This document shows, in pieces, positions 2,893 to 8,616 of a DNA stretch of 11,411 nt. Numbering within the stretch: the first letter of the stretch is position 1; every line of letters begins with the position of its first letter. Source of the stretch: a virus (Duplodnaviria > Heunggongvirae > Uroviricota > Caudoviricetes). The position numbers and the translations under genes were made by a program. The stretch is taken from positions 1 to 11,411 of the IMG/VR virus record IMGVR_UViG_2713896907_000009. One strand, 5' to 3'. The notes under the pieces are model-generated. The model was not told the DNA's origin. It did not search any database and saw only the letters and a list, made by a program, of their open reading frames with translations.

Positions 2893-3237
2893 TCAGAACT
2901 CTTCGATGCTCCAGCCACCACCTGCTTTCTTTGGTTTAACCGTTACCCCGATGATTCGGAACGGATACTGATCTGCGGCGACTTTGGTTTTCACCCTGGC
3001 GTCGTCGGTCCAGAAACCTTTCACTTCGTGCAGTTCCATCTCGCCGGTGGCGAGCATCACAGCAAAATCGGGCGTATAGAACGTGTTGTCAGCTAACCGC
3101 AGCTTGATACCCTCAAATCGATACCAGACGATTTCTCCTGCACGTTTACGCAGCTCAAGGTGCTGGCAATACGCAGATTCTGTTTTGTTCATCTGGCCTG
3201 TTTTGAGTCGACCAAGAGCCTGTATCTGTTTTCTCAT
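2893..3237 (-). CDS. DUF1064-like phage protein (114 aa)
   Basis: ORF 2893-3237; pattern ...Y..LELRKRAGEI...YTPDF.V......ELHEVKG......ARVKTKVAADQYPF matches my recollection of the DUF1064 family found beside phage replication genes. SD GAGGT upstream of the ATG lies inside an operator-like palindrome. Confidence 0.6.
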   Translation of the reverse strand: MRKQIQALGRLKTGQMNKTESAYCQHLELRKRAGEIVWYRFEGIKLRLADNTFYTPDFAVMLATGEMELHEVKGFWTDDARVKTKVAADQYPFRIIGVTVKPKKAGGGWSIEEF

Positions 3238-3240
3238 GAT

Positions 3241-3317
3241 TTACCTCTGAGGTAATTAAAAACCACATAAGACATGAAATCAATAGAATTTAGAATATTT
3301 TATTACCCATCAGGTAA
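3241..3317 (-). promoter_or_regulatory. Leftward promoter flanked by two TTACC-N5-GGTAA palindromes (operator-like)
   Basis: Palindromes at 3241-3255 (TTACC TCTGA GGTAA) and 3303-3317 (TTACC CATCA GGTAA). On the minus strand: -35 TTGATT (plus 3283-3278), 17-bp spacer, -10 TTTAAT (plus 3260-3255). One palindrome is 18 nt upstream of the -35; the other abuts the -10 and includes the SD of the 2893-3237 gene. Confidence 0.45.
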
Positions 3318-3354
3318 TTATCGAGGCGTAAAAAAATGCGCTATCGCGCTGGTA

Positions 3355-4140
3355 TTACTTGATAAATCCTGCCGCCTTTCCCCGCCTGTATTCCTCCATC
3401 AGCCACTGCGCTGGTGTTATTCCCCCAAGGGTGGCGGCGTTAGGCATGCACCCGAAACTTCGCCCTGATGGATGGTAAACGTCTCTCCCTGTGTCCGGAG
3501 GTGTACTCATGGGCTCTGGCTTTGCCTGTATGCTGATCACCGGCTCGGGTATCTGCTGTCCGGAAGCCACCTTTTTCGCCCAATCATCGAGCAGCCTGCG
3601 CGCGTGTTTCTCAACCTCAATCTCGCTAAGCTGGCGCTGATACATTGCACGGCGGGTATCACATACGACCCAGTACATAACCGGATGCCGCCACGGGAAT
3701 CTTTCGGGACCACCAGGATATAAACTTTTTTCCTTGCTGTACCGGTGAAACTCCGCCATCACATCGTCAATGGTGACGCCAAGAACCATCTTGCTGTCTT
3801 TACACCACTTGATGAATTGCCCTGGCGACGGCCAGAACGGAGATTCACTGGCGCGGGCGTGGCGCATACCAGCAGAAACCTGTTCACGGGTTCGGATCCC
3901 CCCTTCGGCAAACGCAGCAATCCACTGCTGTTTTGCAGCAACTTCCTGCTCTGGCGTCTTCAGGTTGGTTACCACTGCCGCCGGAAACAGTTGTTTCAAC
4001 TGTTTGAAAAGGGCATCAACAAGCCTCTCTGCTGACATGTTCACCACGTTGTCATTGTTAGTGTACTGATGCTCATAACCTGACATGCGAGAAAGGGCTT
4101 CTCCGTCACGGTTTTGTATCGCGGTAAAAACGTTGTTCAC
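3355..4140 (-). CDS. Replication protein P-like (helicase loader, lambda P family)
   Basis: ORF 3355-4155; segments PFWPSPGQFIKWC, SLYPGGPERFPWRHPVMYWVV and QIPEPV match lambda P as I recall it (PFLPSPGQFVAWC, GLYPDAESYPWKSNAHYWLV, AIPEPV). Start placed at GTG 4140-4138 (GGGAGGA SD 6 nt upstream), overlapping the upstream stop as GTGA. Confidence 0.7.
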   Translation of the reverse strand: MNNVFTAIQNRDGEALSRMSGYEHQYTNNDNVVNMSAERLVDALFKQLKQLFPAAVVTNLKTPEQEVAAKQQWIAAFAEGGIRTREQVSAGMRHARASESPFWPSPGQFIKWCKDSKMVLGVTIDDVMAEFHRYSKEKSLYPGGPERFPWRHPVMYWVVCDTRRAMYQRQLSEIEVEKHARRLLDDWAKKVASGQQIPEPVISIQAKPEPMSTPPDTGRDVYHPSGRSFGCMPNAATLGGITPAQWLMEEYRRGKAAGFIK

Positions 4141-4976
4141 AAGAAATCCTCCCATGCTTCAGGGCTGTTCCAGTGCGGAACGTTGTTATCAGGTAATGTT
4201 GATTGCTTCTGTCTGCTAATCTGCAGCCGCCTTGCCAGCTTCTGCTCCCACTGTGCCTGATGGTATGCCTTACCCTCAGCCATCCAGTAAATTCTGAACT
4301 CTGCAAGTTCCTGTGCCGTTGGCAGACTGTCCAGGTAGATCCCCTGCAATGAGCTTTTCCGAAGAAAGTCATCTGATGGCTGCCATTGTTCATGCATGAC
4401 AAATTTGCCTAATTGCCCTGGCCCACCAGGAGGAACAAAGTTATTCATCACGGCGTTGTTTGCGCCGGGGTCATGAGGCACAGAATCCCCGGCTTTTGTC
4501 CTGCTCTCCCTCTCTTGGTTAAATGACTGGTTATATGACTGGTTCTGGATCCCGTTTTTGGGATCATTCAACATCCCGTTTTTGGGATCATTCAACATCC
4601 CGTTTTTGGGATCATTCAACATCCCGTTTTTGGGTATATTCCCGTTTTCGGGAACATTACCGTTTTCGGGTTCATTGCTCCATTCCCGGTTGCCTTTAAT
4701 GTTCCCGTTTTTGGTTATATTAAGAGAGAAAACCCGCACTCTTTTCGTCGCTCCCTTTCTCTCTCCGGTATCTGAAATAAGCCCCATTTTCATGAGCGAT
4801 ATAAGCCCGGCCTGTACGGTTTTTTTATTCAGGCAAGTGTCTTTAACGAGGCGTTCTATGCTGGGGTAGCAGAGGTTATATTCATCGGCTCTGTCAGCCA
4901 TCGAGAGCAGTATGAGCTTTAATGACGAGCTACCCGGATCTGTCTCCCAGGCCCAATCTGTTGCATGTCTGCTCAT
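4137..4976 (-). CDS. Replication initiator, O-like (N-terminal DNA-binding domain, Asn-rich repeat linker encoded by iterons, C-terminal domain)
   Basis: ORF 4137-4976, ATG 4976 with GGAG SD. Sits immediately upstream of and coupled to the P-like gene. Contains in-frame 8-aa repeats (PKNGMLND x3) encoded by 24-bp direct repeats, as lambda O contains ori. C-terminal region resembles DnaT/O-type replisome-organiser domains (from memory, unverified). Confidence 0.65.
   Translation of the reverse strand: MSRHATDWAWETDPGSSSLKLILLSMADRADEYNLCYPSIERLVKDTCLNKKTVQAGLISLMKMGLISDTGERKGATKRVRVFSLNITKNGNIKGNREWSNEPENGNVPENGNIPKNGMLNDPKNGMLNDPKNGMLNDPKNGIQNQSYNQSFNQERESRTKAGDSVPHDPGANNAVMNNFVPPGGPGQLGKFVMHEQWQPSDDFLRKSSLQGIYLDSLPTAQELAEFRIYWMAEGKAYHQAQWEQKLARRLQISRQKQSTLPDNNVPHWNSPEAWEDFL
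4547..4700. repeat. Iteron array: three perfect 24-bp direct repeats (4561-4632) flanked by degenerate copies; putative phage replication origin inside the O-like gene
   Basis: ggatcattcaacatcccgtttttg repeated exactly at 4561-4584, 4585-4608 and 4609-4632; partial or degenerate copies at 4547-4560 and 4633-4700. Each unit contains the inverted repeat GGGAT/ATCCC. Confidence 0.6.
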
Positions 4977-5290: not shown

Positions 5291-5321
5291 TAGATATGAA
5301 AAGACCGCCGAGTGGCGGTCT
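5291..5321 (-). terminator. Putative intrinsic terminator downstream of the Cro-like gene (tR1-like position)
   Basis: Perfect 8-bp GC-rich stem agaccgcc / ggcggtct (5302-5309 and 5314-5321) with 4-nt loop; on the minus strand it is followed by TTTTCATATCT. The T-tract is short (4 T), so efficiency is uncertain. Confidence 0.4.
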
Positions 5322-5342
5322 ACAGAGGGTTGTGGCTGGATA

Positions 5343-5573
5343 TCATGAGTAGAAGAAGTATGCCAGTTCTGCTTTTGAGCGCAGCCATTGTCTTGTTTTA
5401 CAGGCTTTAAAAAGCCCATTCATCAATACCTTACCTGGCATTTTGCGCTTACCTGTTAAGTGAGTCTGGATATAGTGACTCGTCGTTCCGGCTTCCTGTG
5501 CGAAGGCTTCACGCTCATCTGGAGTAAGTGCAAGCCAGTGCTTTTTGAAATCGAAATGTCCGTTATCGCTCAT
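5343..5573 (-). CDS. Cro-like small HTH DNA-binding protein (76 aa)
   Basis: ORF 5343-5573, divergent from the repressor gene across an operator-containing region. Segment EAFAQEAGTTSHYIQTHLTGKRKMPGK resembles the HTH of Cro/YdaS-type proteins. SD is weak. Confidence 0.5.
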   Translation of the reverse strand: MSDNGHFDFKKHWLALTPDEREAFAQEAGTTSHYIQTHLTGKRKMPGKVLMNGLFKACKTRQWLRSKAELAYFFYS

Positions 5574-5608
5574 AGCTATTGCCTGATATTTATTTCAGAT
5601 AATAAATA

Positions 5609-5672
5609 TTCACCCATAAGGTAACAAAAATCAAGGATAGTTACCTATGGGGTGCATTTACCTGTTGGGTAA
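5609..5672. promoter_or_regulatory. Divergent promoter/operator region between the Cro-like and repressor genes with three operator-like sites
   Basis: Sites at 5609-5623 (TCACC CATAA GGTAA), 5641-5655 (TTACC TATGG GGTGC) and 5658-5672 (TTACC TGTTG GGTAA, perfect) in an AT-rich 154-bp intergenic region; -35-like TTGATT on the minus strand. I could not place the -10 elements confidently. Confidence 0.5.
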
Positions 5673-5727
5673 TATTGCTTTAAATTGAATCATCTACTGA
5701 TTCATATATGAGGCGATTTTCCAGAAA

Positions 5728-6312
5728 ATGAAAAGTATCCAGGACGTCCGCAGGCAAAATCTCAACGACTTGATCGACCGTGAATTCAATGGTGTTCAGA
5801 CGCGGATGGCAGAAAAACTTGGAACTCAGGCAAATCTGGTAAACCGCTGGGCTCTTGGCAAGAAGGTTATCGGCGACCAGGTTGCGCGAAAAATTGAAGC
5901 TGCCGCCAATAAACCCCGTAACTGGCTTGATATCGATCGCTCGCTTTCTCAGGAAGGTTTTCAGCCTGTCGGACCAAGCGACATTGGTCAGCTGGCGGCT
6001 CACAACCTGGAACGCTGGATGAGCGAAAGCCGCGACCTTTCAACGCAGGGAAAACTTCACCGCGCATCCGGCGTCGCCCAGGTGACAATCAGCCGCCTGT
6101 TAAACAATGAGGTCAGCGTTTCCATTTCCACCCTGGAGAATGTTGCATCAGCATTCGGGCGTCACGGATATGAACTACTGATTCACCCACACGACCCTGC
6201 GACTATCAACTATGACCGCTCGCGCTACGCTTTGTTACCCGAAACCGAGAAAGCAAAGATCGAAAGTTACATTGAATTTGTCATCAACCAGAACGAAAAA
6301 AACAAACAATAA
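5728..6312 (+). CDS. Phage repressor-like protein with two tandem XRE-type HTH domains and no S24 peptidase domain
   Basis: ORF 5728-6312. HTH 1 about aa 25-70 (VQTRMAEKLGTQANLVNRWALGKK...); HTH 2 about aa 105-150 (LHRASGVAQVTISRLLNNEVSVSISTLENVASAF). C-terminus has no Ser/Lys dyad or Ala-Gly cleavage context. Flanked on both sides by TTACC-N5-GGTAA sites. Confidence 0.65.
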   Translation: MKSIQDVRRQNLNDLIDREFNGVQTRMAEKLGTQANLVNRWALGKKVIGDQVARKIEAAANKPRNWLDIDRSLSQEGFQPVGPSDIGQLAAHNLERWMSESRDLSTQGKLHRASGVAQVTISRLLNNEVSVSISTLENVASAFGRHGYELLIHPHDPATINYDRSRYALLPETEKAKIESYIEFVINQNEKNKQ

Positions 6313-6332
6313 AATCATATTTTTCAGTAAGT

Positions 6333-6358
6333 AAGCCGCCTTCTGGCGGCTTTTTTAT
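6333..6358 (+). terminator. Rho-independent terminator downstream of the repressor gene
   Basis: Perfect 8-bp stem aagccgcc / ggcggctt (6333-6340 and 6345-6352), 4-nt loop ttct, followed by a T-tract (TTTTTTATT). Confidence 0.7.
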
Positions 6359-6368
6359 TGCCTATTTG

Positions 6369-6446
6369 ATTACCTATCGGGTAATTTTTTTAACTCATAT
6401 CTATTGACATCAAACCAAATACGCATAATCATTACCTAAACGGTAA
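6369..6446 (+). promoter_or_regulatory. Rightward early promoter (PL-like) flanked by two TTACC-N5-GGTAA operator-like palindromes
   Basis: Sites at 6369-6385 (ATTACC TATCG GGTAAT) and 6432-6446 (TTACC TAAAC GGTAA), plus a GGTAA half-site at 6456-6460 that overlaps the SD of the first gene. Consensus -35 TTGACA at 6404-6409; the best -10 candidate CATAAT (6424-6429) gives a short 14-bp spacer, so the exact -10 is uncertain. Confidence 0.5.
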
Positions 6447-6465
6447 CAAACCGAGGTAACAAGTT

Positions 6466-6618
6466 ATGCAGTGGAAAATCATCAACGGTTGGTACTGCGT
6501 TACTGCATGCGGATTCATGAGCTGGAAGTTCCGCACCTTACAGGAAGGTATTAAGTGGGCTTTCGTCAGCAAAGAAGCTCGCGATGTGGCCAACGATAAC
6601 GAGATATGGGAGGGCTGA
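6466..6618 (+). CDS. Small Trp-rich protein (50 aa), first gene of the rightward early operon; unknown function
   Basis: Not in the supplied ORF track (below its size cut-off). ATG 6466 preceded by GAGG at about 9 nt; my own translation is MQWKIINGWYCVTACGFMSWKFRTLQEGIKWAFVSKEARDVANDNEIWEG. Its stop is 2 nt before the next gene's ATG and its 3-prime end encodes that gene's SD (GGGAGGG). Confidence 0.4.
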   Translation: MQWKIINGWYCVTACGFMSWKFRTLQEGIKWAFVSKEARDVANDNEIWEG

Positions 6619-6620
6619 TA

Positions 6621-6920
6621 ATGAACGTTAATCAGCAGAAAAATCTTCAAAAAATCATGCTGGCATTCGACAAGGACTACCGCCTGTCAGAACAGCTATA
6701 TGACCGACAAGTTGAACTGATTGAGAGCATCCGACTTCATCAACTGTCCTCAACTTTCGACGTTGTAACAGGCAAAGGCGTTCGTCAGGAAGTGCTGGAG
6801 GCTGCTAAAGACAGCCCTGAGTTCGAAGAACTGATGGATGCCTACCGGCGCGAGGCAATGGCAATTATAGCGCGCTGGGATCTGGCGGATCAGCTTGATG
6901 GGCAGAGGGACGCGGCATGA
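6621..6920 (+). CDS. Hypothetical phage protein (99 aa) immediately upstream of exo/bet
   Basis: ORF-track frame 6606-6920; start placed at ATG 6621 (MNVNQQ...) with GGGAGGG SD at 6 nt. Stop overlaps the exonuclease ATG (ATGA). No family recognised. Confidence 0.6.
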   Translation: MNVNQQKNLQKIMLAFDKDYRLSEQLYDRQVELIESIRLHQLSSTFDVVTGKGVRQEVLEAAKDSPEFEELMDAYRREAMAIIARWDLADQLDGQRDAA

Positions 6921-7738
6921 AACCGGGAATTTATTTCGACATCAGCAACGAAGACTACCACGCAGGTGACGGCGTGAGTAAGTCGCAACTGGACATGGTT
7001 GCCAAGAATCCGGCGCTTCTTAAATGGGTTCAGGCAGCACCAGAAGACGAAGAGAAAAAGTCTGCACTGGATATGGGAACCGCATTGCACTGCCTGCTTC
7101 TGGAACCTGGAGAATTCGACAAACGCTTCATCGTTTCACCGAAATTCGATCGTCGGACAAAACAAGGTAAAGCTGACGAAGAAGCATTTCTTCGTGATGT
7201 GGCGGATATGGGTATTACGGTACTTGATGTCGAGCAGTGGCGAAAACTGGAGCTGATGCGTGATAGCGCAATGGCTCATCCGGCGGCACGCTGGATGTTG
7301 GAAGCACCTGGTTACTGCGAAGCATCAATGTACTGGAACGATGAAGAGACGGGTGAGTTGTGCCGAATTCGTCCAGACAAATGGCTGAACGAGCACAACG
7401 TGATCGTCGACGTGAAAAAGGTTGCAGATATGGACCGTTTTGCACGCCACATCGAGGAATTCCGCTACCACGTGCAGGACGCAATGTACCGCGAAGGCGC
7501 AATGAGGGTTACTGGTCAGCCGCATGGTTTTTTCTTTCTTGCCGTGAGCGAAAGCATTGATTGTGGTCGGTATCCGGTACGCGTGTTCGAGCTGGATGCG
7601 CCGGATGTCGATGCCGGGCACGCTCTGTTCCGCCGGGATCTGAATACCTATCACGAATGCCGCATCAACGATGAGTGGGGCGGAGTGGAAATTATTAAAC
7701 GCCCTGACTGGGCACGTAAACAGGATATGTACGTATGA
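6917..7738 (+). CDS. PD-(D/E)XK family exonuclease (phage recombination exonuclease, RecB-like nuclease fold)
   Basis: ORF 6917-7738. Motifs in order: IRPDKW (D), VIVDVKK (D-x-K), QDAMYREG (QxxxY), the arrangement of RecB/Cas4-type PD-(D/E)XK nucleases. Coupled (ATGA) to the downstream Bet-like gene. Confidence 0.7.
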   Translation: MKPGIYFDISNEDYHAGDGVSKSQLDMVAKNPALLKWVQAAPEDEEKKSALDMGTALHCLLLEPGEFDKRFIVSPKFDRRTKQGKADEEAFLRDVADMGITVLDVEQWRKLELMRDSAMAHPAARWMLEAPGYCEASMYWNDEETGELCRIRPDKWLNEHNVIVDVKKVADMDRFARHIEEFRYHVQDAMYREGAMRVTGQPHGFFFLAVSESIDCGRYPVRVFELDAPDVDAGHALFRRDLNTYHECRINDEWGGVEIIKRPDWARKQDMYV

Positions 7739-8616
7739 GCAATGATATCGCAATCACATCACAACCTGGCGCAACTGTAGGTACTGCTGCGGCAATCTTC
7801 AGCCCGGAGGGCATGAATCAACTGGTGCGTTTCGCGGAGTTGATGTCACAAAGCAAAGCGACTGTACCGAAACATCTTGAAGGCAAACCTGCCGATTGCC
7901 TGGCGGTGACCATGCAGGCGGCACAGTGGGGAATGAACCCGTTCGCCGTGGCGCAGAAAACGCATGTGGTAAACGGAACGTTAGGCTACGAAGCACAGTT
8001 GGTAAACGCGGTCGTATCCTCTTCCAGCCTGCTGGCGACACGCCTGAATTATCGCTGGAGCGGTGACTGGTCGAATGTTAACGGCAAAACAGATAAATCA
8101 CCGAATCTGACGGTAACTGTGTCAGCAGTTCTTAAAGGAGAAGCAGAACCACGTGAGCTTACCATCAGTATGGCGCAAGCCGGAGTGCGTAACTCTCCAT
8201 TGTGGGAACAGGATCCGCGCCAGCAGCTTGCCTATCTTTGCACGAAACGATGGGCTCGCCTGCACGCTCCTGATGTACTTCTCGGTGTTTACACCCCTGA
8301 AGAATTACAGGAAACGGCACCGCGCGTTGAGCGAGACATTACTCCGCAAACAACTACGGCTGCGGGAATGAATAGTCTGATCAACGCTAAAACAGTGAAA
8401 AAGCCTGATGAGCAAACGCGTAAAGCGGATAGCCGTGATCCAGAAGAAATGCTGATGGCCTTTACCAGCGCAGCAATGAATTACAGCACTGTCTCCGAAC
8501 TGGATAAGGCTTACAAATACATTGCACAAAAACTTTCAGATGATGACGAACTGCTGGCAAAAGCCACCGACGTTTACAGCGTTCGTCGGGAAGAATTAAA
8601 CGAAACATCTATGTAA
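7735..8616 (+). CDS. Single-strand annealing protein, Bet/RecT (Red-beta) family
   Basis: ORF 7735-8616. Segments GMNPFAVAQKTHVV, PLWEQDPRQQLAYLCTKRWARL and ERDITP parallel lambda Bet as I recall it (GLNPWTKEIYAF, PWQSHPKRMLRHKAMIQCARL, ERDITP). Sits directly downstream of a nuclease, as in exo/bet and recE/recT pairs. Confidence 0.75.
   Translation: MSNDIAITSQPGATVGTAAAIFSPEGMNQLVRFAELMSQSKATVPKHLEGKPADCLAVTMQAAQWGMNPFAVAQKTHVVNGTLGYEAQLVNAVVSSSSLLATRLNYRWSGDWSNVNGKTDKSPNLTVTVSAVLKGEAEPRELTISMAQAGVRNSPLWEQDPRQQLAYLCTKRWARLHAPDVLLGVYTPEELQETAPRVERDITPQTTTAAGMNSLINAKTVKKPDEQTRKADSRDPEEMLMAFTSAAMNYSTVSELDKAYKYIAQKLSDDDELLAKATDVYSVRREELNETSM

Follow-up and report, generated by a model that had tools for sequence, protein, structure and literature searches.

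A repressor with two helix-turn-helix-like units in a phiV10-like Escherichia coli prophage is very probably governed by an SPC32H-type antirepressor under LexA control

The gene at positions 5,728–6,312 of the window (the whole stretch of 11,411 nucleotides analyzed here) encodes a prophage repressor, Rep, that very probably works in the manner of its counterpart in Salmonella phage SPC32H: a Rep tetramer would occupy paired operators until, in the SOS response, cleavage of LexA allows an antirepressor (Ant) to dock on the C-terminal domain (CAD) of Rep and release it from DNA. The second of the two helix-turn-helix (HTH) units in Rep (residues 85–152) appears, by sequence and from the account of SPC32H Rep in citing papers, to correspond to the middle dimerization domain (MDD) of that protein. 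A tandem-HTH repressor without an S24 domain is already known, from p40 of phiV10, ORF21 of vB_EcoP_ZX5 (hereafter ZX5) and the SPC32H homologue, and the antirepressor of this prophage is, judging from its relatives, located outside the window.

The window corresponds to the early and immunity arm of a prophage resembling phiV10, an epsilon15-like podovirus of the genus Uetakevirus. Over positions 5,300–6,700, identity is 98.4% with phiV10 and 97–98% with about 15 further records of E. coli phages, and the rep region is carried by 561 of 5,426 complete E. coli genomes, in which guaA adjoins the prophage; the right end of the window is the integrase end. A preliminary description of this DNA had placed a repressor candidate divergent from a Cro-like gene, and both genes are as described: the rep open reading frame has exactly the coordinates given, running from an ATG at 5,728 to a TAA at 6,310–6,312, and its divergent neighbor matches PHROG 35. 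The main features of the locus are as follows:
5,728–6,312 (+ strand): rep, the putative 194-residue lysogeny repressor, corresponding to phiV10 p40 (100% identity; PDB 5D50_A match)
5,343–5,573 (− strand): divergent cro-like gene, 76 residues, phiV10 p41 (PHROG 35 'transcriptional repressor', E = 5.6e-13)
6,333–6,352 (+ strand): intrinsic terminator 3′ of rep, annotated in phiV10 too
6,404–6,432 (+ strand): promoter-like site TTGACA-17-AATCAT (10 of 12 matches) of the early operon (gp39, gp38, RecE, RecT and further genes)

An antisense open reading frame of 107 codons at 5,680–6,003 (− strand), nested in the conserved rep gene, was without supporting evidence and was discarded.

Using tblastn, we found Rep to be 100% identical to phiV10 p40, to ZX5 ORF21 and to proteins encoded in 11 further phage records. 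The presence of 'two helix-turn-helix motifs' had already been noted for p40 in the GenBank record of phiV10, and the function of the identical ZX5 protein has been demonstrated by others: overexpression of ORF21 left no free phage and reduced the transcripts of endolysin by 99.99% and of holin by 99.97% (PMC9782041). Among structures in the PDB, residues 1–190 of Rep match 5D50_A, named 'Repressor' (phmmer, E = 4e-42), and residues 89–190 match 5D4Z in a sequence search; both structures come from Salmonella phage SPC32H. Aligned with the rep product of that phage (tblastn), Rep is 41.8% identical over 98% of its length, with 53% identity in the N-terminal domain, 32% in the middle domain and 43% in the C-terminal domain. 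In the record of epsilon15, the repressor cites 5d50_A and repressor-binding sites are annotated downstream of the repressor. By homology to phiV10 p40, ZX5 ORF21 and SPC32H Rep, the protein is thus probably what had been proposed at the outset, namely a prophage repressor that is non-cleavable and depends on an antirepressor for its inactivation.

The domain architecture of Rep was derived from profile searches and from an AlphaFold2 model (52 homologues, mean pLDDT of 80.6), and comprises four parts:
5,728–5,943 (+ strand): N-terminal HTH DNA-binding domain, residues 1–72 (predicted helices 4–19, 24–31, 35–43 and 50–59)
5,944–5,979 (+ strand): flexible linker, residues 73–84 (pLDDT <50 at residues 74–82; variable in length and poorly conserved)
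5,980–6,183 (+ strand): second XRE/HTH_3-like five-helix unit, residues 85–152 (HTH_3 25.7 bits; 5D4Z match)
6,184–6,309 (+ strand): probable C-terminal tetramerization and antirepressor-binding domain (CAD, 'TetDloop'), residues 153–194 (alignment with 5D50 and 5D4Z to residue 190; role assigned as in SPC32H Rep)

Two stretches of Rep match the Pfam HTH_3 profile. When the units were also scanned separately, the second (residues 106–147) scored 25.7 bits, exceeding the HTH_3 cut-off of 23 bits, and the first (residues 24–67) scored 15.9 bits (E = 0.013), below the cut-off, with a sub-threshold YdaS/Cro-like match. We consider the first unit a genuine HTH because PHROG repressor families span residues 1–76 (E = 2.8e-11 and 4.1e-10), the AlphaFold2 model has a four-helix N-terminal domain (residues 4–59) and the homology to 5D50 extends over the full length of the protein. 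In the same model, this domain is followed by a five-helix XRE-like domain (residues 85–151; helices 85–100, 107–114, 118–125, 133–142 and 147–151) and a C-terminal helical segment (residues 164–193), such that residues 85–152 combine a five-helix fold with an HTH_3 score above the gathering threshold. The best PDB matches of the model in a Foldseek search were again 5D50 and 5D4Z ("Rep-Ant complex from Salmonella-temperate phage"), and XRE-family proteins and SinR were also among the fold matches. The second unit aligns structurally with 5D4Z (residues 92–198 of SPC32H Rep) with a TMt of 0.65–0.70, and residues 86–160 match NHTF (3vk0) by sequence. The earlier observation of two HTH units in one chain is therefore upheld by the two HTH_3 stretches, the PHROG families, the AlphaFold2 model and the homology to 5D50.

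Work on SPC32H gives these parts their likely roles. As described in one citing paper, SPC32H Rep consists of an N-terminal DNA-binding domain, the MDD and the C-terminal CAD, and the CAD is a p53-like "TetDloop" that tetramerizes Rep and binds the antirepressor (PMC9986798). According to another, DNA is bound by the Rep tetramer and only weakly by the dimer, the pair of N-terminal domains reading a given palindrome is proposed to be drawn from two separate dimers, and an Ant tetramer engages two Rep dimers and disrupts the tetrameric repressor (PMC9638917).

The 15-bp palindrome to which the preliminary description referred proved to be real. Five perfect copies of TTACC-N5-GGTAA occur in the window versus 0.01 expected, and none of 200 shuffled sequences reached five. 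Together with two degenerate sites, these give seven operators, listed here without strand:
3,241–3,255: perfect, directly 5′ of a DUF1064 gene (2,893–3,237, − strand)
3,303–3,317: perfect, inside a − strand promoter-like site (−35 at 3,324–3,319, −10 at 3,302–3,297), 62 bp from the 3,241 site
5,610–5,624: TCACC-N5-GGTAA (one mismatch), within the promoter-like site of the cro-like gene (−35 at 5,627–5,622, −10 at 5,604–5,599, − strand)
5,641–5,655: imperfect, TTACC-N5-GGTGC, with position and degeneracy as in phage Tyrion and a Serratia relative
5,658–5,672: perfect palindrome TTACCTGTTGGGTAA, just 5′ of rep
6,370–6,384: perfect, 5′ of the −35 element in the early promoter that points rightward
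6,432–6,446: perfect, over the −10 and start of the early promoter, 62 bp from the 6,370 site

Three of the operators (5,610, 5,641 and 5,658) thus occupy the intergenic region shared by rep and its cro-like neighbor. The 3,241/3,303 pair is kept in both phiV10 (35,070/35,132) and SPC32H (35,972/36,034), and the TTACC half-site, the three-site layout and the 62-bp pairs are common to SPC32H, epsilon15, Tyrion, Klebsiella phage BUCT711 and the Serratia relative. A spacing of 62 bp, or about six helical turns, would suit a tetramer that bridges two operators. Covariation between recognition helix and half-site, examined across Tyrion, BUCT711, epsilon15, SPC32H and the Serratia and metagenomic relatives, did not discriminate between the two HTH units as readers of the operator: TTACC is invariant throughout, and both Rep helices keep some invariant residues.

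No antirepressor is recognizable in the window, in line with the preliminary description: there is no perfect CTGT-N8-ACAG LexA box, sites with one mismatch are at the level of chance (six versus 4.0 expected), and tblastn searches of the window for an Ant or Bro homologue returned only noise (E > 3). The suggestion that a LexA-box-controlled antirepressor might be found elsewhere was borne out in phiV10 and in rep-carrying E. coli prophages. The SPC32H ant gene has 86 codons and is divergent from the tailspike gene. At the same position, phiV10 encodes p24, which is 'hypothetical' in the record and 88% identical to SPC32H Ant. The rep region of the E. coli YF-1 prophage shares 98.9% identity with the window, and Ant of this prophage is 86% identical to SPC32H Ant and matches PDB 5D50_E, 'Anti-repressor protein' (E = 1.6e-45). 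All three genomes have a CTGT-N8-ACAG LexA box just 5′ of the ant ribosome-binding site (TACTGTGTATTTATACAGT in phiV10, TACTGTATATTTGTACAGT in YF-1 and TACTGTATGTTTATACAGT in SPC32H). Across the 5,426 complete E. coli genomes, the ant region was found in 531, near the number with rep. The small Ant protein had no family match in Pfam. A review credits LexA-controlled, Ant-mediated induction to Kim and Ryu in 2013 (PMC7380047), and a DNA-damaging microcin induces prophages of the phiV10 species of Uetakevirus 21- to 47-fold (bioRxiv 10.64898/2026.05.26.727859).

Taken at the strength given above, the SPC32H-type mechanism would operate in this prophage as follows. The N-terminal HTH of Rep would read the TTACC half-site, the middle XRE-fold domain would dimerize the protein, and the short C-terminal domain would join two dimers into a tetramer while also serving as the docking site for the antirepressor. 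Bound to TTACC-N5-GGTAA operators, often in 62-bp pairs, the tetramer would hold the lytic genes off through the divergent rep and cro promoters, the early operon promoter 3′ of rep and a third promoter at 3,241/3,303. Upon DNA damage, Rep would stay uncut, while self-cleavage of LexA would derepress ant (p24 in phiV10), which is expected about 12 kb away, beside the tailspike gene and outside the window. Ant would then bind Rep, break the DNA-binding tetramer and free the operators. For this prophage, we infer non-cleavage of Rep, tetramer formation, Ant binding and Ant-driven induction by analogy with a homologue of 42% identity (32% in the middle domain). In that homologue, Kim and Ryu reportedly observed in 2013 that Rep is uncleaved in the SOS response and that Ant expression becomes constitutive once the LexA box carries a point mutation; they are also said to have found the small Ant structurally distinct from Tum-type antirepressors.

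Two other roles for the second HTH unit can be weighed against dimerization. In the preliminary description, a single Rep chain was thought able in principle to contact both half-sites of one 15-bp palindrome with its two HTH units, which we regard as highly improbable. The two HTH-like units do share a chain, the linker between them is predicted to be flexible and one helical turn separates the half-sites. However, an exact palindrome requires two identical reading heads, and at five perfect sites the half-sites (TTACC/GGTAA) are exact inverted copies, whereas the Rep units are unrelated: aligned to each other by BLASTP, they gave no alignment even at E ≤ 1,000, and their third helices are unlike (QANLVNRWALG versus AQVTISRLLNN). 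The same absence of detectable similarity led us to reject a recent internal duplication as the source of the two units. The middle domain is also slightly acidic, with a net charge of −1 versus +5 for the N-terminal domain, and, as citing papers describe the SPC32H homologue, its second unit dimerizes, with each palindrome contacted by N-terminal domains that are paired inside a tetramer. In the N-terminal domain, helix 3 contains the sequence NLVNRW, whose N36, R40 and W41 do not vary in the family alignment; the charge, the dissimilarity of the units and these invariant residues are consistent with the second unit being the MDD. It is also quite unlikely that the middle domain, besides dimerizing, makes a second functional contact with DNA, whether in the flanks or the spacer of an operator or at a site of its own. 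This domain clears the HTH_3 threshold at 25.7 bits, and Q118, T120 and R123 of its third helix show little or no variation among family members, but these residues could equally serve a dimer interface, the charge difference between the domains points away from DNA, no second conserved motif was seen beside the operators, and the domain is named for dimerization in the SPC32H literature (PMC9986798).

With regard to induction, we give almost no credence to Rep being a cryptic RecA-dependent autocleavable repressor in the style of lambda CI or LexA. The response of phiV10-species prophages to DNA damage would fit such a protein and nothing else favors it; LexA-controlled Ant accounts for the SOS response. 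As the preliminary description had stated, Rep lacks an S24/LexA-like peptidase domain: the Peptidase_S24 profile did not match Rep even at E ≤ 1, the roughly 42 residues beyond the second unit are too few for an S24 domain, and the predicted structure is all-helical, lacking the beta-rich S24 fold. The best fold matches were SPC32H Rep and XRE-family proteins without S24; no S24 domain was found among the Foldseek matches, where 2kpj, the only entry with LexA in its name, proved to be an HTH protein of 94 residues. A different question is whether Ant is the inducer, or the only one, in phiV10-type phages. The ZX5 study names ORF4, of the Bro-N family, as the antirepressor, and its overexpression lowered lysogens about 1,000-fold and repressor transcripts by 75% (PMC9782041). 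In phiV10, p23 has a Bro-N domain, is annotated as a 'putative anti-immunity protein' and follows ant closely in the same orientation; a perfect Rep operator (20,497–20,511) lies in between. Yet ZX5 ORF4 and phiV10 p23 are just 39% identical and hence represent a variable gene, whereas Ant and its LexA box are conserved between SPC32H and phiV10-type phages, at 86–88% identity for Ant. Moreover, SPC32H is induced by Ant despite having no annotated Bro gene beside ant, and the binding of Bro to Rep is so far putative. We therefore find it doubtful, while according it some weight, that a Bro-N protein is the inducer instead of, or together with, Ant.

Compared with known systems, Rep and its putative partner are closest to SPC32H Rep/Ant. 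In addition to full-length homology, the two share a three-part repressor (as citing papers describe SPC32H Rep), the gene order of cro-like gene, divergent rep, terminator and early operon, and TTACC-N5-GGTAA operators at spacings of 17/31 bp and 62 bp; in SPC32H and the phiV10-type relatives alike, ant neighbors the tailspike gene and is preceded by a LexA box (86–88% identity for Ant). The differences concern the host, which is E. coli here, the operator spacers, which contain G/C here versus all A/T in SPC32H, and the number of operators 3′ of rep, with two here versus three in SPC32H. Phages phiV10 and ZX5 show no difference at the protein level, as p40 and ORF21 are identical to Rep, and gp38 of epsilon15 is of the SPC32H type, with 42% identity to Rep.

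Repressors of Gifsy prophages had been put forward as the established precedent, but SPC32H Rep/Ant is closer: its homology to Rep is direct, and its structure has been solved. Gifsy-1/2/3 and the CI/Tum pair of coliphage 186 share with Rep the proposed logic of a non-cleavable repressor and an SOS-controlled antirepressor (PMC7380047). The 37 phage records matched by Rep (tblastn, E ≤ 1e-5) include no Gifsy record, in a collection whose Gifsy content is unconfirmed. What sets the SPC32H type apart from Gifsy and 186 is, as described in the citing literature, a tetrameric Rep with a p53-like tetramerization motif. Like Rep, lambda CI, P22 C2 and LexA have an N-terminal HTH DNA-binding domain, and the lambda CI type further resembles this locus in having divergent rep and cro promoters with three operators, further operators clustered at the other early promoter and higher-order oligomers that bridge operators, as proposed here. 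In contrast, lambda CI, P22 C2 and LexA carry an S24 autopeptidase, whereas Rep is predicted to have neither S24 nor a RecA-stimulated cleavage module and, unlike the lambda CI type, would oligomerize through an XRE-fold domain and a short tetramerization motif. Rco of the Bacillus plasmid pLS20, with its antirepressor Rap (compare SinR/SinI), resembles Rep in combining an N-terminal XRE HTH and a C-terminal TetDloop with a protein antagonist, but lacks the middle XRE-like dimerization domain (PMC9986798). Rco is, moreover, part of an unrelated mobile element, and its signal, peptide quorum sensing, is unrelated too.

These comparisons also allow a wider but unlikely reading, in which the genus forms one immunity and induction group spanning phages of Salmonella, E. 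coli, Klebsiella, Enterobacter and Serratia, and Q118, T120 and R123 have a second role in the recognition of DNA or of a partner. The proposal of one group is based on the invariant operator half-site and the 86–88% identity of Ant, which persist although the Reps are only about 42% identical. If true, a single Ant would cross-induce divergent prophages that reside in the same cell.

The case carries a warning for annotation: the HTH that is significant in Pfam would be a dimerization module and the real DNA-reading head scores below threshold, so counting HTH matches misleads as to which part of a repressor contacts the operator. Correct annotation is the main value of the result. This type of prophage is present in 561 of 5,426 complete E. 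coli genomes, or roughly a tenth, and a LexA-controlled antirepressor, not cleavage of the repressor, would couple its induction to the SOS response.

With up to one mismatch to TTACC-N5-GGTAA allowed, the whole phiV10 genome contains 14 operator-like sites for Rep, the 194-aa repressor of the window, versus 0.78 expected, and the whole genome of Salmonella phage SPC32H contains 18 versus 0.65 expected. These include the following positions:

phiV10 (L003): 87, 105, 3252, 20497, 20877, 24692, 26870
SPC32H (L002): 12, 3175, 20013, 24782, 26960

Across these phage genomes, the scattered sites are found upstream of the terminase genes, the portal operon and int, and also beside ant, which encodes the small LexA-controlled antirepressor Ant, and in the oac/holin intergenic region. 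Judging from these positions, most transcription units, ant itself included, may be under direct Rep control.

Within the window, sequence matching identified a third operator pair for Rep, both members perfect:

3241-3255: TTACC-N5-GGTAA operator
3303-3317: TTACC-N5-GGTAA operator

Their spacing of 62 bp is that of the 6370/6432 pair, and they flank a - strand promoter-like site located in the interval from the P-like replication gene to the DUF1064 gene. Conservation of the pair extends to phiV10 (35070/35132) and SPC32H (35972/36034). The arrangement suggests a transcription unit with its own repression past the replication-gene terminator. Elsewhere in the window, three exact 24-bp tandem repeats (4559-4626) were called by a scan as + strand terminator-like hairpins; in fact they encode PKNGMLND three times on the - strand, within the DnaT-like primosomal protein (ORF 4137-4976, -). 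The recombination genes are two separate ORFs with a 4-base overlap, whereas the phiV10 record has one fused 'recET' gene (p37):

6917-7738: RecE-like PD-(D/E)XK nuclease
7735-8616: RecT

No Shine-Dalgarno sequence is well placed for the start codon of rep (window 5700-5730); the closest GAGG lies 14 nt before it, and none is present in SPC32H. In this respect the gene resembles those of other phage repressors, with their weakly translated or leaderless maintenance transcripts. Public assemblies also contain frameshifted or truncated relatives of the 5728-6312 product (proteins P0077 and P0083-P0086), one of which, an N-terminal fragment of 106 aa, matches residues 1-106 exactly (21 member sequences, on contigs of ≤37 kb). 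The rep region of phage phiv142-3 matches as two pieces whose span exceeds that of the query by ~1 kb, suggestive of an insertion. Such variants may represent prophages in decay or rep genes broken by insertion.

The ant loci and their phiV10 neighbourhood are as follows:

SPC32H (L002) 19676-19936: ant
phiV10 (L003) 20543-20800: ant (p24)
L005, a further phiV10-type sequence, 5880-6137: ant
phiV10 20497-20511: perfect Rep operator between ant and p23
phiV10 19646-20230: p23, Bro-N 'anti-immunity' gene, same strand as ant

In phiV10, ant is followed by a terminator and the perfect operator, with p23 directly downstream; p24 is still annotated as 'hypothetical protein'. The antirepressor described for E. 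coli phage vB_EcoP_ZX5 is its Bro-N protein (39% identical to p23), and that paper makes no mention of a small SPC32H-type Ant (PMC9782041).

Between SPC32H and phiV10-type phages, Ant is 86-88% identical and Rep only 42% (N-terminal domain 53%, middle domain 32%, C-terminal domain 43%), and the operator half-site is invariant in relatives from Salmonella, E. coli, Klebsiella, Enterobacter and Serratia. Conservation of Ant and the half-site alongside such divergent repressors raises the question of whether the whole genus could form one immunity and cross-induction group.
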